Assembly (NCBI GenBank): GCA_035510465.1
Contig: DATKHC010000001.1
Span: forward strand, 6,799-70,798
Origin: Candidatus Saccharimonadales bacterium
Lineage (GTDB): Bacteria; Patescibacteriota; Saccharimonadia; Saccharimonadales; DATKHC01
Length of the DNA: 64,000 bases
Direction: 5' to 3'
The notes beneath the pieces were generated by a model. It ran no database searches. It was not told the DNA's origin and worked only from the letters and a program-made list of their open reading frames with translations. The position numbers and the translations under genes are program-made. Below, one piece after another: positions 33,382 to 63,121 of this stretch. Numbering within the stretch: position 1 is the first letter of the stretch; each line of letters opens with the position of its first letter.

Positions 33382-33669
33382 TGGAGGTCGGGTCTGACTA
33401 TGGGTCACCCAATTAATGGCTGAGATAACACGTTGGTACTGTCATAGCTGCTGAGTACTCCCAACACGCTTTGGCTACATATAAAGTCTGATGTGTTCGG
33501 GGCTCTTAAGGTAGAGTTATTGGTTTTTAACCGAATCTACCTTAATTAAAAGCTCTTAATAGCTAAAAGGGATGGTTCGCTGGTTCCTTACGATACTACC
33601 CTTAGTTAACGCCTACCTAGTTTGAAAGTGCAAAAGTACAACTACTATAGTAGGAGACTTTTTGAGTTT
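33382..33669 (-). ncRNA. conserved structured non-coding element, copy 1 (unclassified; candidate RNA)
   Basis: About 290 nt directly after the PIN stop codon and homologous to 35384-35679. Shows compensatory changes and a GUAA tetraloop hairpin. Ends in CCTCCA and is followed by a terminator. Confidence 0.5.
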
Positions 33670-53372: not shown

Positions 53373-54299
53373 CTAGCGCTCTCGCTCATTGAGTGCCAAG
53401 TATTCCTTACCTATCATAATAAAGTACTGTCCATTAACGTCAACTTTTTGACCCGGGCTATAAGTTTTCAGAGCAACTGTTATATCATCTAGTAGTTTTC
53501 GGTCAAAACTTCTTAACTTATTTTGCCTTAACCAATGAATAAGAACTTCAACAGCAACTTTATGTGGTAATAGAATGAATGACTTGCGTATCAAGCCAGC
53601 CTTATCGGAATTTAATCTTAAATATTGATTGAGCTCAATCTCAAGTTGCCGATTAGTTTCAGAGGTTTGATTAATAATATCTATAAACTTGTCCTGGGAT
53701 GGTTTATCTATTTTTGGTAGCAATCGATGCCGAATATAGTTTCTCTTATATTGAACATCCTGATTTGTTGAATCTTCGTTCCAGGCAAGATTATGATCTT
53801 TCGCGTAGTCGATTAGCGTTTGTTTAGGAAAGTTGAGAAAAGGTCTCACCACATACTCACGAGAACGAAGTGAAGACAATCCACGTCTACCAGTACCCCT
53901 AAGTAAATTGAAAATGGCTGTCTCAACTAAGTCATTTTGATGATGAGCAGTGATCACAGCGTTTGCTCCAGAGGCTTTTCTGACGCTATTTAAAAATTGA
54001 TACCTATATTTTCTGGCTTCGGCTTCGCTTGCACCTTCTCCTAAATTAGCCCGGTCGAAAACAAACGGCAGTTTATAACGAGCGGCAGCCTTTTGAACGA
54101 GTTTAAGATCCTGATTAGAGTTGCCACGGATTCCGTGATCAAAATGGGCTACCACTATTTTTAGTCCAGGCTGGCTGGCTAATAGATCGAGCAGGACCAT
54201 CGAATCAACACCACCTGAGACCGCCGCTACGTAGGTACCTTTGCTTAAATTAATCTGTGGGGGGGAATTTTGCATAATCTTTCCTCGTTTTAGTATCAT
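53373..54299 (-). CDS. tilS: tRNA(Ile)-lysidine synthase
   Basis: PP-loop SGGVDS and TilS N-terminal domain. Confidence 0.85.
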   Translation of the reverse strand: MILKRGKIMQNSPPQINLSKGTYVAAVSGGVDSMVLLDLLASQPGLKIVVAHFDHGIRGNSNQDLKLVQKAAARYKLPFVFDRANLGEGASEAEARKYRYQFLNSVRKASGANAVITAHHQNDLVETAIFNLLRGTGRRGLSSLRSREYVVRPFLNFPKQTLIDYAKDHNLAWNEDSTNQDVQYKRNYIRHRLLPKIDKPSQDKFIDIINQTSETNRQLEIELNQYLRLNSDKAGLIRKSFILLPHKVAVEVLIHWLRQNKLRSFDRKLLDDITVALKTYSPGQKVDVNGQYFIMIGKEYLALNERER

Positions 54300-54917: not shown

Positions 54918-54994
54918 GGCGGCGTAGCTCAGTTGGTTAGAGCGCGGGACTCATAAGCCCGAGGTCATAGGTTCAATTCCTATCGCCGCTACCA
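54918..54994 (+). tRNA. tRNA-Met, elongator type (anticodon CAT)
   Basis: Acceptor GGCGGCG/CGCCGCT, anticodon loop CTCATAA, T-arm ATAGG-TTCAATT-CCTAT, CCA. The body resembles elongator Met, but Met versus Ile2 cannot be proven from sequence alone. Confidence 0.8.
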
Positions 54995-55032
54995 TATTTG
55001 ACTATTAGTAAAGCTTATGCTATACTAATAAC

Positions 55033-55626
55033 ATGTCAGAAAAACCAAAATCAAATCAAAACACCAGCCCAGAGAAAATTGCTGAGTTATTACACGACCC
55101 TGCTTTTAAAACCATGCTTGAGGGTCACACTGGAGAATATATAAGCTCTGGGTTAATGACTTACTACGGTAAAAGCATTAAACACAATAATAAAAGATTT
55201 GAAGATGAGCCTGATTTCTTAAAAGTGTTTCTGGCAAAGCACAATGATGAAGAGCAACTAGACAAGATAAAAGAGTCGCATGATGAACATCACGAAGTGG
55301 CCAGTGAATCACTGCGAGTTGAAGGTCCATTATTAGTAACCAGACATTTTCAAGAGCCCAATGATGCTGGAGTAGCTAAGACTTGGTACGGTCTTGAAAG
55401 ATATAACCCAACTGATGGTAATCCATTACCTTTATCACACTTTTTTGTCTGTGAGGTCGGTGATGACGGAAGCGTTGAATGCGGAATAGACCAGCCAGCT
55501 GATTTTGTTCCAGACGCACAATTACGCGAGTTTGCTGAAATGCTTGATCGACACTTTGATCAACAAGTTCAAGCAGGCTTAGTTATTGATGTTCCTGTGA
55601 AGTTCAGTATTAAAGGTATAGTGTAG
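55033..55626 (+). CDS. hypothetical protein (first cassette after tRNA-Met)
   Basis: 197-aa acidic ORF with TTGACT, 17 nt, TATACT upstream. No family recognised. Confidence 0.45.
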   Translation: MSEKPKSNQNTSPEKIAELLHDPAFKTMLEGHTGEYISSGLMTYYGKSIKHNNKRFEDEPDFLKVFLAKHNDEEQLDKIKESHDEHHEVASESLRVEGPLLVTRHFQEPNDAGVAKTWYGLERYNPTDGNPLPLSHFFVCEVGDDGSVECGIDQPADFVPDAQLREFAEMLDRHFDQQVQAGLVIDVPVKFSIKGIV

Positions 55627-55707
55627 GTCACATCTAGTTATAAGCTGCTCAACAGGTTCAATACCTCGCGATTAGGCTTTCGAACAAGTCTTACTCCTGG
55701 TTTGATT

Positions 55708-55777
55708 CACTATTTCCCACATCGCAATCAATTCAAGTTTGAGTTGGTTCCATTTCGTCCAACTCGTCTCTACCATA
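55708..55777 (+). repeat. 70-bp cassette-boundary direct repeat R1
   Basis: CACTATTTCCCACATCGCAATCA...TTGGTTCCATTTCGTCC...CTCTACCATA aligns with R2 and R3. Confidence 0.65.
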
Positions 55778-55785
55778 AAATCCTC

Positions 55786-55814
55786 TTGACATAAGTGGTC
55801 AGTGTGATTACAAT
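55786..55814 (+). promoter_or_regulatory. promoter of mazEF-like module
   Basis: TTGACA, 17 nt, TACAAT, directly after R1. Confidence 0.6.
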
Positions 55815-55824
55815 AGTAATTACT

Positions 55825-56061
55825 ATGCAGTCAACTATAATTCAAATCGGTAATTCTAAAGGTGTACGTCTACCCAAGGATGTTCTAACCCTAAGTGGTA
55901 TTAAAAAAGACATTGATATAAAGGTCAAACGAGGTGAAATAAAAATAGTCCCTATAAAGGAAAGTAAAAATATTGATGACTTCGCTATTGCTTCTGAGGA
56001 GTCGTTTGCTAAAGACTGGCTACGACCTGAGGAGGAAGAGGCATGGAAAGCTTATCAATAG
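55825..56061 (+). CDS. AbrB/MazE-family antitoxin
   Basis: MQSTIIQIGNSKGVRLPKDVL is a SpoVT/AbrB pattern. The track start 55795 lies inside the promoter, so ATG 55825 is preferred. Confidence 0.75.
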   Translation: MQSTIIQIGNSKGVRLPKDVLTLSGIKKDIDIKVKRGEIKIVPIKESKNIDDFAIASEESFAKDWLRPEEEEAWKAYQ

Positions 56062-56378
56062 GCCAAGTAGTCTTAGCTACCTTCCCTTTTTCAGACTTAA
56101 CGGCAACAAAACTTAGGCCGTGTTTGGTTATTGGCCTAGCTGAGTTTAATGATGTTTTATTGTGCCAAATAACAAGTAAGAACTATGGCAGTAGAAAAGC
56201 AATAATGTTAGCTATGAGCGATTTTGATCAAGGAGAACTCGTACGTGATAGTTTTGTTCGCCCAAACAAAATAGCTACATTAGATAAAAGCAAAATAAAA
56301 CGAACCTTAGGGACAATTAGCAGCAACAAGCTGGATGAGGTTAAAGAAAGGCTGAAAAGTATTCTTGAGATAAGTTAA
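56043..56378 (+). CDS. MazF/PemK-family toxin
   Basis: GQVVLATFPFSDLTATKLRPCLVI pattern. Overlaps the antitoxin gene. Confidence 0.8.
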   Translation: MESLSIGQVVLATFPFSDLTATKLRPCLVIGLAEFNDVLLCQITSKNYGSRKAIMLAMSDFDQGELVRDSFVRPNKIATLDKSKIKRTLGTISSNKLDEVKERLKSILEIS

Positions 56379-56419
56379 AAAGCTTCTGATTTTAAACTTT
56401 GTTCTTCTCTAATTTGTTT

Positions 56420-56489
56420 CACTATCTGCCACATTGCTATCAGTTCTCTCTTTATTTGATTCCAATTCGTTCCTACCACGCCTACCATA
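56420..56489 (+). repeat. 70-bp cassette-boundary direct repeat R2
   Basis: CACTATCTGCCACATTGCTATCAG...TTGATTCCAATTCGTTCCTACCACGCCTACCATA. Confidence 0.65.
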
Positions 56490-56518
56490 TTGACATGTTA
56501 AGTAATGTTTGATACCAT
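56490..56518 (+). promoter_or_regulatory. promoter of HTH-PIN module
   Basis: TTGACA, 17 nt, TACCAT, directly after R2. Confidence 0.55.
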
Positions 56519-56524
56519 ATAGTC

Positions 56525-56791
56525 ATGTCTAATAACATTATTCCTGATAAAGTATATACTCCTGAGCAAGTCGCAACTATGTTGCAGCTCTCTAAAAATA
56601 CTGTCTACGAATTGATCAGCAGAGGTGAACTTGTCGCTAAACGTTTCGGTAGAGTTTATCGAGTGCCTGCTAGCTCACTCAATTTTATCTTTACTGGTCT
56701 AGACGCCGACTTATACAATGCCGAGCAGATTGATTTGGCGTCCATAGATAAAGTTCACAAAGAACTGGCAGCAGTACGTAAAGGTTCGTAA
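56525..56791 (+). CDS. excisionase-family (MerR-like) HTH protein, probable antitoxin
   Basis: YTPEQVATMLQLSKNTVYELISRGEL is an HTH_17-type pattern. The next gene, a PIN toxin, starts 1 nt after the stop. Confidence 0.65.
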   Translation: MSNNIIPDKVYTPEQVATMLQLSKNTVYELISRGELVAKRFGRVYRVPASSLNFIFTGLDADLYNAEQIDLASIDKVHKELAAVRKGS

Positions 56792-56792
56792 T

Positions 56793-57230
56793 ATGACCTT
56801 CATTAGACCAATAAGGGTCTTTGTTGACACAGATGTAATAATATCTTCCCTTATTTCTAAGTCTGGTGCCGCTTTTGCTCTTATATCCCATACAGAGCAG
56901 GTAAAGCTCTATATATCAAACTATTCTGTATTAGAGTTTAATAAAGTTGTTGACAGACTCCACCTTCAACAAGAGGTGTTGCACAATGTCATTAAAAACC
57001 AATTAACCTCTGTTAAGATTGACCAGACATACAAAAAAGTGCAGATACGGTTTGCTGATTACGTTCGAGACCCCGATGATGCCCATGTCGCTGCTGGTGC
57101 CATGGAAGCTAAGGCTTCATTTTTAGTATCATATAATGTTCGGCATTTTAATGCTGAGAAACTAAGACAAGATTTTCAAATTATCCTTTTAACACCTGGT
57201 TTATTTTTGCAATACCTACGTAGTTTATAG
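56793..57230 (+). CDS. PIN-domain toxin
   Basis: VFVDTDVIISSL N-terminus and later DPDDAHV. Confidence 0.75.
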   Translation: MTFIRPIRVFVDTDVIISSLISKSGAAFALISHTEQVKLYISNYSVLEFNKVVDRLHLQQEVLHNVIKNQLTSVKIDQTYKKVQIRFADYVRDPDDAHVAAGAMEAKASFLVSYNVRHFNAEKLRQDFQIILLTPGLFLQYLRSL

Positions 57231-57249
57231 CCTCTCCCCTAACAGTCTT

Positions 57250-57319
57250 AACTATTTGCCACATCGTTATCAGTTCTCGTTTAATTTGGTTCCAATTCGT
57301 TCCTATCAGACCTACCACG
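57250..57319 (+). repeat. 70-bp cassette-boundary direct repeat R3
   Basis: AACTATTTGCCACATCGTTATCAG...TTGGTTCCAATTCGTTCCTATCAGACCTACCACG. The 3' part resembles the tRNA-Met 3' end. Confidence 0.65.
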
Positions 57320-57356
57320 ACTTTTATTTTTACAATTAAGGCTATAGAGTTAAATA

Positions 57357-58298
57357 ATGGCATATCAACCATACTTTTCTTCATATAGACCAAGCACACC
57401 ATCTTCGAACCCTAAGAAGCAAACAAAGAAAAAAACCAAAAAGACCCATAAGAAAGTCTTTTGGGCAGTTTTAGTACTGTTGATAGTGTTTTTTTTCGTG
57501 TTTTTTGGTAATAAAAAACCGTTATCGGACGTGACAAATACAATCGTAAAAATTAACCCAATCCAGAAAAAGACCACTCCACCAGCCCCCTCTCTCAACC
57601 TTACTCTGCTCAGCAACCAAATTAATGGTGTTATCACTGCAAACAGCGGTATAGATTTCTCCGTGAGCACTATAGATTTAAGTAATGGGCAACTAGAACA
57701 CTACGGTGACTCGGGTACTTTTTTAGCTGCCAGCACAAGTAAAGTTATTACGGCAGAGGATTTCCTAAAACAGGTCGAGCTTGGTAATGAAAGTTTAACC
57801 GAGACAATAAACGGCAGTTCTGCAGAACATGAAATCCAACAAATGATAGTCGTAAGTAATGATAACGCCTGGGATGCATTAAATAATGAACTAGGTTACA
57901 ACCAACTTGAAACTTACGCCTCTCAAATTGGTATCCCAGATTTTGATTCTGATGCTAATTCACTAACGTCCAACGACATAGCTGTAGCATTACAAAAACT
58001 ATACCAAGGCCAGCTATTAAACTCTAACGACACCCAACTCTTATTATCATATCTGTCAGAAGCCAACTATCGGCAATATATACTCCCAGCAATACCATCA
58101 GGTTATATGGTTTATCATAAAGTTGGATTTTATGAAGACTACGTTCACGACGCGGTTATTATAAACAAAGGCAATCAAACAATTGTTTTAGTAATCTTTA
58201 CTAATGGTAACGGTACGTACAATTGGACTCTTAGGGCACAGTTAATGCAACAAATTACTAAATACGTACTAGCTACTTACTTTACTAGTTCTTCTTAG
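57357..58298 (+). CDS. membrane-anchored class A beta-lactamase-like serine hydrolase
   Basis: N-terminal TM, SxxK (ASTSKV), SxN (VSNDN) and a KTG-like HKVG. Confidence 0.6.
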   Translation: MAYQPYFSSYRPSTPSSNPKKQTKKKTKKTHKKVFWAVLVLLIVFFFVFFGNKKPLSDVTNTIVKINPIQKKTTPPAPSLNLTLLSNQINGVITANSGIDFSVSTIDLSNGQLEHYGDSGTFLAASTSKVITAEDFLKQVELGNESLTETINGSSAEHEIQQMIVVSNDNAWDALNNELGYNQLETYASQIGIPDFDSDANSLTSNDIAVALQKLYQGQLLNSNDTQLLLSYLSEANYRQYILPAIPSGYMVYHKVGFYEDYVHDAVIINKGNQTIVLVIFTNGNGTYNWTLRAQLMQQITKYVLATYFTSSS

Positions 58299-60976: not shown

Positions 60977-61051
60977 CGCGGGGTGGAGCAGCGGCAGCTC
61001 GCGTGGCTCATAACCACGAGGTCACAGGTTCGAGTCCTGTCCCCGCTACCA
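60977..61051 (+). tRNA. initiator tRNA-fMet (anticodon CAT)
   Basis: CGCGGGGTGGAGCAGC start with a C1-U72 mismatch, anticodon arm CGTGG-CTCATAA-CCACG, CCA. Confidence 0.85.
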
Positions 61052-63044: not shown

Positions 63045-63121
63045 TGGTGGGGCTGGTTGGATTCGAACCAACGACCAATCGGTTATGAGCCGACTGCTCT
63101 AAACCACTGAGCTACAGCCCC
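63045..63121 (-). tRNA. tRNA with CAT anticodon, probably tRNA-Ile2 (lysidine-modified)
   Basis: Acceptor GGGGCTG/CAGCCCC, anticodon loop CTCATAA. The variable loop and T-arm (TTGGTCGTTGGTTCGAATCCAAC) resemble ileX-type tRNAs. The Ile2 versus Met call is an inference. Confidence 0.75.

Follow-up and report, generated by a model that had tools for sequence, protein, structure and literature searches.

Probable attachment scars of a large serine recombinase in a tRNA-Met-anchored cassette array of a Candidatus Saccharimonadales bacterium

A 64-kb stretch of contig DATKHC010000001.1 from a Candidatus Saccharimonadales bacterium (the whole stretch of 64,000 nucleotides analyzed here, hereafter referred to as the window) contains an array of short gene cassettes on the 3' side of a tRNA-Met(CAT) gene. 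The cassettes are separated by three copies of a direct repeat, which we call R (R1 to R3 with increasing distance from the tRNA). R is a coding sequence on the minus strand, and in related genomes the same peptide forms the C-terminus of a large serine recombinase (LSR), whose integrated form reads directly into the tRNA. Based on these observations, we consider it quite likely that each R is an attL-type scar (B-o-P') of a small integrative element of the LSR family that inserted at the 3' end of the tRNA-Met gene.

Layout of the array downstream of tRNA-Met

The repeat search retrieved a single three-copy family of direct repeats (55691–55775, 56403–56487, and 57233–57317), whose outer copies share 65% and 79% identity with the middle copy. 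A degenerate 18-nt core of R matched the 64-kb window three times, always at R1–R3, with 0.48 matches expected by chance, and a profile search of the six-frame translation likewise recovered R1–R3 as the sole copies. Together with the Pfam assignments, these results bear out the proposal of an earlier note, made from the sequence alone, that three repeats separate mutually unrelated gene modules downstream of tRNA-Met. The repeats also lie where that note had placed them, but the conserved unit exceeds the proposed 70 nt and extends on the minus strand from 55776 to 55672, from 56488 to 56375, and from 57318 to 57181. The hexamer CTACCA (TGGTAG on the minus strand) is common to the end of the tRNA-Met (54989–54994) and to the ends of the R copies (55770–55775, 56482–56487, and 57312–57317), and beyond these 6 nt the likeness of R to the tRNA T-arm consists of a shifted TTGAACC-like motif. 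Hence, the suggested resemblance of R to the tRNA 3' end stands for the shared CTACCA and not for a duplicated tRNA end: only 6–7 nt are common, and the remainder is better explained as a recombinase half-site and a displaced LSR coding end.

The three copies differ in completeness. R1 represents the full-length form of a subtype with the sequence SWTKWNQLKLE and retains a motif behind its stop codon, whereas R2 and R3 belong to a GTNWNQIKRE subtype and have their last codons replaced by the 3' ends of mazF and of the PIN gene, respectively. The gene pairs MazE-like/PemK and HTH_17 (excisionase-type helix-turn-helix, HTH)/PIN_3 each overlap or abut in the manner of type II toxin-antitoxin (TA) systems, and their domains support the view that two of the three cassettes are TA modules. 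The cargo of the first cassette, the open reading frame (ORF) ORF197, had no match in Pfam and none in PADLOC. The four best promoter-like sites between 54800 and 57500 (10–11 of 12 consensus positions) are located 3–12 nt past the tRNA end and past each R. Thus, the near-consensus promoters noticed earlier close behind the repeats were recovered at 55786, 56490, and 57329, with an additional site at 54998 behind the tRNA.

Features of the cassette array, with positions given in the window
Feature	Position	Strand	Evidence
tRNA-Met(CAT), proposed integration target; 3' half, presumed B' half-site	54918..54994	+	ARAGORN; Rfam 70.4 bits
Putative junction core CTACCA at tRNA 3' end; same hexamer closes R1, R2, R3	54989..54994	.	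sequence reading
Promoter-like site, cassette 1: TTGACT-17-TATACT, TG extension	54998..55026	+	10/12 consensus positions
ORF197, cargo of cassette 1	55033..55626	+	ORF list
R1, T-arm-like motif behind the stop codon, AGGTATTGAACC	55655..55671	-	sequence comparison with the window's tRNA
R1, probable attL-type scar: core, P' half-site, and 34-codon relic of LSR 3' end (MVETSWTKWNQLKLELIAMWEIVNQTRSKTCSKA, then stop)	55672..55776	-	hidden Markov model (HMM) score 58
Promoter-like site, cassette 2: TTGACA-17-TACAAT	55786..55814	+	11/12 consensus positions
MazE-like antitoxin; alternative GTG start at 55795	55825..56061	+	PF04014, E 4.8e-5, just below Pfam cut-off
MazF/PemK toxin	56043..56378	+	PF02452, E 1.3e-15
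R2, probable attL-type scar; tail replaced after ~codon 29 (..REEQSLKSEAF, then stop); overlaps mazF stop codon	56375..56488	-	HMM score 72
Promoter-like site, cassette 3: TTGACA-17-TACCAT	56490..56518	+	10/12 consensus positions
HTH_17 protein, putative antitoxin partner of PIN protein	56525..56791	+	PF12728, E 7.1e-13
PIN_3 domain protein	56793..57230	+	PF13470, E 8.7e-16
R3, most distal probable attL-type scar; codon 1 GTG; tail diverges after ~codon 29, overlaps PIN 3' end	57181..57318	-	HMM score 64
Distal flank: promoter-like site (57329–57358) and beta-lactamase-family gene (57357–58298)	57329..58298	+	Beta-lactamase2, E 8.7e-26

The array is bordered by genes for a histidine phosphatase and TilS on the tRNA side and, at the distal end, by the beta-lactamase-like gene and a gene for an ABC transporter. 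The beta-lactamase flank probably represents either the sequence that originally followed the tRNA or an older cassette in which no scar can be detected; contig L049 of the same species (L numbers denote related loci and contigs) is arranged as the window is. The same-species contigs L049–L051, which stem from other samples, repeat the arrangement of the window and break at or near R copies: L049 ends 20 nt after R3, and L050 and L051, like L049 from short-read assemblies, also break at or near R. An initially considered variation of the array within the species was therefore dropped, as these contigs merely end at repeats. Since short-read assemblies break at R copies, such arrays are probably under-represented or fragmented in metagenome-assembled genomes (MAGs).

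Several further features of the window were noted. Three tRNA genes with a CAT anticodon occur within ~8 kb (54918–54994, 60977–61051, and 63045–63121), and tilS (53373–54299), encoding tRNA-Ile lysidine synthetase, lies ~0.6 kb upstream of the targeted tRNA. The sequence AAGCATAAGC (GCTTATGCTT on the tRNA strand) recurs 3–4 nt from the junction core at many cassette starts (for example L001 6001, L015 5503 and 9975, and L035 1048; in the window 55015–55022). Its copy in the window sits in the spacer and the TG-extended −10 element of the promoter behind the tRNA, and AAGCATAAGC is probably a part of the promoter and not a recombinase site. The TTGACA hexamers beside the junctions likewise have the look of promoter elements. 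Finally, ATAGTCAGACCCGACCTCCA, which the earlier note described as the end of a "PIN-associated element copy 1", has a single occurrence in the window (33382–33401, minus strand) and is followed by AGCATAAAC and a TTGAC-like hexamer. This layout resembles the junction-plus-promoter arrangement of the R array, and the site may be the scar of another element.

R as coding sequence and its distribution in Saccharimonadales

R is a coding sequence. Its minus strand contains the sole frame that is open in all three window copies (~34 codons), and its first codon, ATG or GTG, corresponds to the end of the repeat that reads CTACCAT or CTACCAC on the plus strand. Between R2 and R3, 7, 2, and 11 substitutions fall on the first, second, and third codon positions, and 10 synonymous codon changes were counted next to 7 non-synonymous ones, compared to at most 5 synonymous changes in any other frame. 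A reading of R as a plus-strand peptide was rejected, because that frame is open only in part and shows few synonymous changes. With a profile built from the three peptides, 21 database proteins of 32–71 aa (typically 34 aa) were retrieved, which share the near-invariant core MVGV.GTNWNQIKRELI.MWQIVKQVREE. Codon statistics were derived from 61 distinct DNA copies of R, and information content from 38 good copies. Codons 10–29 carry 1.47, 1.72, and 0.95 bits at the three codon positions, with switches between the Arg and Leu codon families. Codons 1–9 carry 1.41, 1.72, and 1.57 bits; the missing relaxation at the third position indicates an additional constraint at the DNA level in this part of R. 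The stop codon is located exactly at codon 35 in 38 of the 61 copies, while the first codon is not a start codon in 15 and an early stop occurs in 11 of them.

Conservation continues past the stop codon. The motif GCGGGTGTTATTGAACC follows it in full-length R copies as well as in the circular-looking contigs described below. For R1, this motif agrees with the antisense T-arm of the tRNA in the window at 12 of 13 positions (z = 4.1), and z exceeded 2 in 47% of 38 R copies compared to 3% of control flanks. With the form (AGGWA)TTGAACC, it is the second T-arm-like motif of the R unit, and it lies ~3–20 nt past the R stop in full-length copies of other loci and in the circular-looking contigs. It could be an accessory site or a remnant from a longer copy of the tRNA in attP.

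The position of R at the cassette 3' end on the transcribed strand, its tRNA-like end CTACCA, and the two occurrences of a TTGAACC motif within the R unit would also suit a plus-strand RNA element that is structured or resembles a tRNA, such as a 3' processing signal for the cassette mRNAs. This explanation is barely credible, as no Rfam family matched at R, R folds no better than shuffled sequence, and conservation follows a period of three in the minus-strand frame with synonymous switches of codon families.

A scan that took one genome per species revealed 37 loci with R, nearly all of them in MAGs of Candidatus Saccharimonadales or Saccharibacteria. In these loci, the R copies always share one orientation and lie, mostly within a few kb, 3' of a tRNA that has the opposite orientation. 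A homologue of the window's tRNA-Met anchors the arrays in most related loci, and the anchoring tRNA is tRNA-Glu in L025 and L027. Arrays comprise 1–9 copies with a spacing of 0.5–1.2 kb, the largest being those of L015 (nine copies) and of L001 and L040 (six each).

Cassette content and order vary between relatives. The MazEF cassette was found in five genomes (window, L001, L024, L028, and L035) with 72–82% nucleotide identity, and the comparison of related loci that the earlier note had recommended for detecting gain and loss placed it in the slot next to the tRNA in L028, in the second slot in the window, and in the fifth in L001. Four genomes (window, L001, L022, and L023) contain the HTH-PIN cassette. 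In every genome with the MazEF cassette, the R at the mazF 3' end has the same variant tail (..REEQSL..), which indicates that each R moves together with the cassette that it adjoins at the 3' end. Conversely, the left flanks (the promoter ends of the next cassettes) of R1 in the window and R1757 in L035 are homologous while their R bodies differ, which places a breakpoint near the ATGGTAG core. Thus, R stays within its tRNA context instead of occurring as a generic upstream element, the locus is variable across relatives, and the idea of a sequential duplication of att sites at tRNA-Met proved to be essentially right.

The cargo of 61 small cassettes comprises PemK, PIN, CopG, Zeta, and HTH_17 domains, GNAT acetyltransferases, HAD and alpha/beta hydrolases, small kinases, and membrane or pilin-like proteins, and many cassette ORFs had no Pfam match. 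Most cassette ORFs (60 of 78) are encoded on the strand opposite to R. The decay of R increases with the distance from the tRNA (mean within-array rho = −0.32, permutation p = 0.026). A block containing the element is 95% identical between L020 (9713–16582) and L021 (9711–15511), compared to 69–76% identity of the host flanks, and this difference indicates a recent horizontal transfer. On its left side, the block begins within a zeta-toxin-like flanking gene, ~295 nt beyond R and not at the R core, suggesting that homologous exchange contributed too. Within the block, a central cargo segment of 1–2 kb has been replaced.

The recombinase, its tRNA junction, and its free form

In L002–L005, a gene of the Resolvase family coding for 515 aa overlaps the 3' end of the tRNA. 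By tblastn, homologues abutting the tRNA were also detected in L008, L010, L020, L021, L025, L027, L035, and L041, so that at least 12 loci share this arrangement, and further homologues were found in L026 and L034. These proteins contain the Pfam domains Resolvase (PF00239, on nearly all), Recombinase (PF07508), and Zn_ribbon_recom (PF13408), as well as the catalytic motif YTRVSTKEQ, of which R9 and S11 are invariant across 46 sequences. A phmmer search matched the LSR to a catalytic domain of the resolvase family (3guv) and to that of TP901-1 integrase. The AlphaFold (AF2) model of one homologue, P0024, has a mean predicted local distance difference test (pLDDT) score of 83 and consists of the catalytic domain, a long helix E, a recombinase domain, and a zinc-ribbon region into which a coiled coil of two helices (residues 345–392 and 398–441) is inserted. 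Foldseek aligned ~510 columns of this model to the serine integrase-att complexes 9dxd and 9dxh, and also retrieved Bxb1, PhiC31, and 4kis (LI integrase with DNA). The tRNA-linked enzyme of the related loci and circular-looking contigs is therefore an LSR by domains, motif, and fold.

This result also bears on the notion that the array is integron-like and lacks attC-type hairpins, a sedentary integron or cluster of attC sites lacking an integron-integrase (CALIN) in which R would be attC and the tRNA end attI. The second half of this notion was correct, because R1–R3 have no hairpin potential on either strand (DNA folding z between −1.2 and +1.8 relative to shuffled sequences), and co-oriented cassettes, a repeated site, a fixed anchor, frequent TA cassettes, and the single orientation of 60 of 78 cassette ORFs do recall integrons. 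However, the associated recombinase is an LSR and not a tyrosine recombinase of the IntI type, every cassette has its own promoter (10–11 of 12 consensus positions), and R is a coding sequence, which together leave an integron origin with next to no plausibility. No IntI was found among the genes bordering the array; tyrosine recombinases were not searched for across the whole window.

All tRNA-abutting LSRs continue in frame through the antisense 3' end of the tRNA and stop at the TGA of the antisense anticodon loop (for example ...NNSD-LVAATGLEPVTFGL, then stop), and the codon phase (xTG GTA G..) is identical in these LSRs and in R. Moreover, the beginning of R follows the target. In most loci, the antisense 3' end of tRNA-Met reads TGGTAG and R begins with TGGTAG-GCGTG; in L025 and L027, tRNA-Glu ends on TGGTGA and R begins with TGGTGA-GCTTG; and in L041, another tRNA-Met ends on TGGTTGC and R begins with TGGTTGC-ATTGG. 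The first 6–7 nt of R thus co-vary with the target tRNA, which argues that R is an att junction with a tRNA-derived left edge, the rest being contributed by the element.

If attP is located inside the recombinase gene, the excised form should encode an LSR that continues in frame into R. We searched with a chimeric query consisting of LSR residues 1–501 and the R peptide, and obtained 749 homologues at E ≤ 1e-30, of which 120 were listed. Among those listed, most are 510–516 aa long and have tails encoded by antisense tRNA, whereas P0024, P0026, P0027, and P0041 (532–534 aa) end in the R peptide (P0024: ...NSH-LVGMVESNWNQIKRELITMWQIVNEIRKESPVTV), as expected for the excised form. Of the 110 full-length homologues, 91 end in a tail of the tRNA type, and 8 carry an R-like helix as their tail. 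Consistent with these results, the contigs L043, L044, and L045 from three samples have terminal overlaps of 141, 141, and 55 nt (k) and are circular permutations of an identical 4,499-bp sequence with 0 mismatches, and L046 (6.3 kb) and L048 (4.1 kb) are circular-looking with terminal overlaps of 30 nt (k−1). Each of these five contigs contains exactly one R, which is fused to the LSR.

In the model of P0024, residues ~491–504 around the crossover location are disordered (pLDDT < 50), and the R-encoded tail forms a single helix (505–528, pLDDT ~72). The distant LSR relatives P0050, P0113, P0127, and P0138 possess other free-form tails with a W-x-x-(I/L) helix start (..GLGWNTLHESIVELDRKLEELGL..); judged by these sequences, a swappable helical tail may be general in the clade of tRNA-targeting LSRs.

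Before the fused LSR forms turned up, R could be regarded as an independent small gene, a family of 34-aa proteins (regulators or TA partners) that was duplicated with the cassettes and expressed divergently. Such a gene would account for the ATG or TTG start in 44 of the 61 copies, the stop at codon 35 in 38, the 29 stop-free initial codons in 50, and the 21 database proteins of 32–71 aa that had been called independently. It would further agree with dN/dS ratios of 0.09–0.53 among the R copies of the LSR-less MazEF cassettes and with a GAGGA-like Shine-Dalgarno sequence 4–5 nt before the ATG of R1. Against it, free-form LSRs carry this very sequence in frame at their C-terminus, and what looks like the start codon begins one base ahead of the TGGTAG core and serves as a Leu, Met, or Val codon inside the LSR gene. 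Furthermore, R2 and R3 have no Shine-Dalgarno sequence, non-start first codons (15 of 61) and early stops (11 of 61) are frequent, codons 1–9 are constrained at the DNA level, and R was never seen outside the tRNA/LSR context. The stand-alone gene was therefore demoted to a very improbable explanation.

Additional features of the LSR elements were observed. An ORF of ~50 aa is located directly upstream of the LSR in integrated and circular-looking elements (L002 8731–8883, L043 1677–1829, L048 1632–1790, and L021 13705–13887); its products share 43–55% identity and an invariant KEARKLLGK, had no Pfam match, and are candidates for a directionality factor or regulator. The 3' coding end of the LSR contains a 14-nt palindrome, GCCNN-CGAA-NNGGC, ~17–30 nt before TGGTAG in L043, L046, L010, L041, and L002. 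It shows compensatory changes (GCCTCCGAAGAGGC versus GCCGACGAATCGGC), encodes A-S-E-E-A or A-D-E-S-A, and is missing in some clades (L008, L020, and L021). As for the cargo of the circular-looking contigs, Pfam and PADLOC yielded only HEPN_AbiU2, an IS30-like gene with an HTH_38 domain, and weak matches, and no replication gene was recognised. The HTH_38-containing IS30-like transposase gene and the HEPN_AbiU2 gene are both located in the 6.3-kb contig (L046 5343–6353), which suggests that the elements themselves acquire insertion sequences and defence cargo.

Proposed mechanism and comparison with known systems

In recombination sites of LSRs, the zinc ribbon domain (ZD) motif is situated 5 bp nearer to the centre in attB than in attP, while the recombinase domain (RD) motif is unshifted (PMC3783163). 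Counted from the T of TGGT, the end of the motif T(G)GAACY was found at +25 in 26 of 28 target tRNAs and at +30 in 37 of 45 R copies. Due to this 5-bp shift, R resembles a P' half-site and the tRNA end a B' half-site in this comparison of the right half-sites. The 6–7 nt shared by R and the target tRNA delimit the crossover. With half-sites of ~25 and ~20 bp, the centre of the site would fall at about positions 5–6 of the core, where the crossover dinucleotide would be expected.

We propose that the recombinase gene itself contains attP within its 3' end. The LSR ORF of the free form would cross the core TGGTAG and ~24 nt of P' half-site and continue for ~25 more codons, giving a 34-residue tail that is predicted to form a helix. 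Integration would join the body of the LSR gene to the tRNA, whereupon the ORF would end on ~14 antisense-tRNA codons and the TGA of the antisense anticodon loop, and the original 34-codon end would be displaced to the far side of the element, where it would constitute the repeat. Repeated events at one tRNA would push older material outward and produce an array of promoter-led cassettes, each closed by its own R; the elements would integrate at the tRNA whatever its 3' neighbour, and the newest cassette should be the one adjoining the tRNA. LSR-mediated excision between the tRNA junction and an alternative R could then capture resident cassettes or shed cargo, leaving LSR-less units, a process possibly aided by homologous exchange between R copies.

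Several observations weigh against this scheme or parts of it. The window contains no LSR by tblastn, and the best profile match had E = 0.1; the lack of a linked integrase reported in the earlier note thus applies to the window and not to the relatives with an LSR directly on the tRNA. Without an LSR, the array of the window is at best a relic or passive cargo, and we best read it as a fixed or dormant cargo array. Where present in the related loci, the LSR always adjoins the tRNA and is never internal to an array. As each circular-looking contig has one R, the stacking of complete elements therefore fails to explain clean LSR-less cassettes. Canonical LSRs recombine only attP with attB, or attL with attR together with a recombination directionality factor (RDF) (PMC3783163), and insertion beside a resident cassette would putatively require tolerance for an arbitrary left half-site. 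When the left (P or B) half-sites were compared by eye, no shared motif was recognised. The dN/dS ratios of R in the five orthologous LSR-less MazEF cassettes are unexpected for pure relics; as two of these five R copies have a premature stop and two have no start codon, it appears that some constraint persisted while some decay is visible. The circular-looking LSR-R contigs could equally assemble from head-to-tail tandem copies, although the attP-type junction exists in either case. Circles of LSR-less cassettes were not found among the contigs, where four short R-ORF-only contigs had no terminal overlap and looked chromosomal. An exact-match scan of one metagenome collection gave 0 matches to the empty tRNA-to-flank junction of the window and 0 matches to the R body of the 4,499-bp sequence, and was uninformative on both.

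Some of these points would favour an alternative in which R copies are LSR att scars as proposed, but the LSR-less arrays were shaped mainly by element decay and homologous recombination between the ~100-nt R copies instead of site-specific capture and shedding. The 65–90% identity of R copies over ~100 nt would suffice for homologous exchange, the L020/L021 block begins ~295 nt beyond R in a flanking gene, cassette circles were not found, and canonical LSRs are inactive on pairs of attP-like and attL-like sites (PMC3783163). On the other hand, decay and homologous recombination do not readily account for the clean cassette boundaries with a strong promoter-like site 3–12 nt past each junction core in the window, for the break of inter-genome cassette homology near the ATGGTAG core (window R1 versus L035 R1757), or for the lack of LSR pseudogene fragments between cassettes in tblastn and profile searches. 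We regard this alternative as unlikely overall, but it deserves serious consideration.

The exchange of the LSR tail could have functional consequences. The linker-tethered helical tail of the free form is under purifying selection, and the two forms face opposite tasks, integration for the free form and excision for the integrated one. By swapping its tail, the LSR could therefore switch its own directionality or stability, a suggestion that we consider doubtful. Alongside a separate RDF or in its place, the tail might modulate the coiled coil intramolecularly or serve as a C-terminal degron that ends in V-x-V. If so, LSR-less cassettes would be mobilisable only while R encodes a working tail and P' site, and this requirement would explain dN/dS ratios below 1 in their R copies. 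Control of direction or stability by the tail would also be relevant to the engineering of serine integrases.

With R as an LSR att scar, recurrent and hitherto unannotated "hypothetical 34-aa proteins" of Saccharibacteria are explained as scars of a recombinase gene. The elements would constitute a compact mobile system (4–6 kb, LSR-driven, and tRNA-targeting) in an ultra-small, host-dependent lineage whose gene exchange is poorly known, and the arrays illustrate how accessory genes, prominently TA modules, build up beside one tRNA. They also provide a natural case of an LSR gene that extends across attP and thus encodes one form of the enzyme in the free state and another in the integrated state.

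Among known systems, tycheposons also integrate site-specifically at tRNA 3' ends, push older elements outward, and leave att scars and degenerate remnants, but they carry tyrosine recombinases in 910 of 937 elements and their scars are partial tRNAs (Hackl et al., bioRxiv 10.1101/2020.12.28.424599). In both systems, cargo gathers in a tRNA-side island and the elements are far more transient than the islands. The R arrays differ in their LSR enzyme, in repeating only 6–7 nt of the tRNA, in a scar that consists of the displaced recombinase 3' coding end, in the small size of their cassettes (0.5–1.2 kb), and in their Saccharibacteria hosts. With integrons and CALINs, the R arrays share short co-oriented cassettes, a fixed anchor, a terminal recombination site, and common TA cassettes, whereas they lack attC hairpins, have their own cassette promoters, and use a double-strand LSR-type site that contains coding sequence.

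Islands of the staphylococcal cassette chromosome (SCC) mec type are mobilised by the large serine recombinases CcrAB or CcrC and insert at the 3' end of rlmH. They resemble the R arrays in being LSR-driven, in their fixed chromosomal site with tandem elements between short direct repeats, and in comprising some modules that lack a recombinase of their own and depend on one in trans. In contrast to R arrays, the SCC target is a protein-coding gene, the repeats are ~15–20 bp long, and the ccr genes do not span attP, so that the recombinase remains unaltered. The closest parallels to the state-dependent C-terminus of the LSR come from two systems with tyrosine recombinases. In archaeal integration of the SSV1 type, attP lies inside the ORF of a tyrosine recombinase, the target is a tRNA, and the integrase gene is split into two non-functional parts. 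As in the R elements, attP is located within the recombinase ORF and integration at a tRNA rewrites the recombinase gene, but the integrated form of the R element LSR (510–516 aa) keeps all LSR domains and merely exchanges a linker-tethered 34-residue tail for ~14 residues. Mycobacteriophages of clusters G, N, and P use a tyrosine integrase and carry attP in the repressor gene, from whose product integration removes a degradation tag. In this integration-dependent immunity, too, insertion at a tRNA alters the C-terminus of an element-encoded protein; in the R elements, however, the remodelled protein is the recombinase itself and not a repressor.

Hence, the build-up of scarred islands by successive integration at a tRNA is already known from tycheposons, and tandem LSR-driven islands are known from SCC elements. 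A literature search found no description of the arrangement seen here. The R elements differ from these systems in that the LSR ORF extends across its own attP, that the scar is the displaced end of this gene, and that the C-terminus of the LSR differs between the free and integrated forms.

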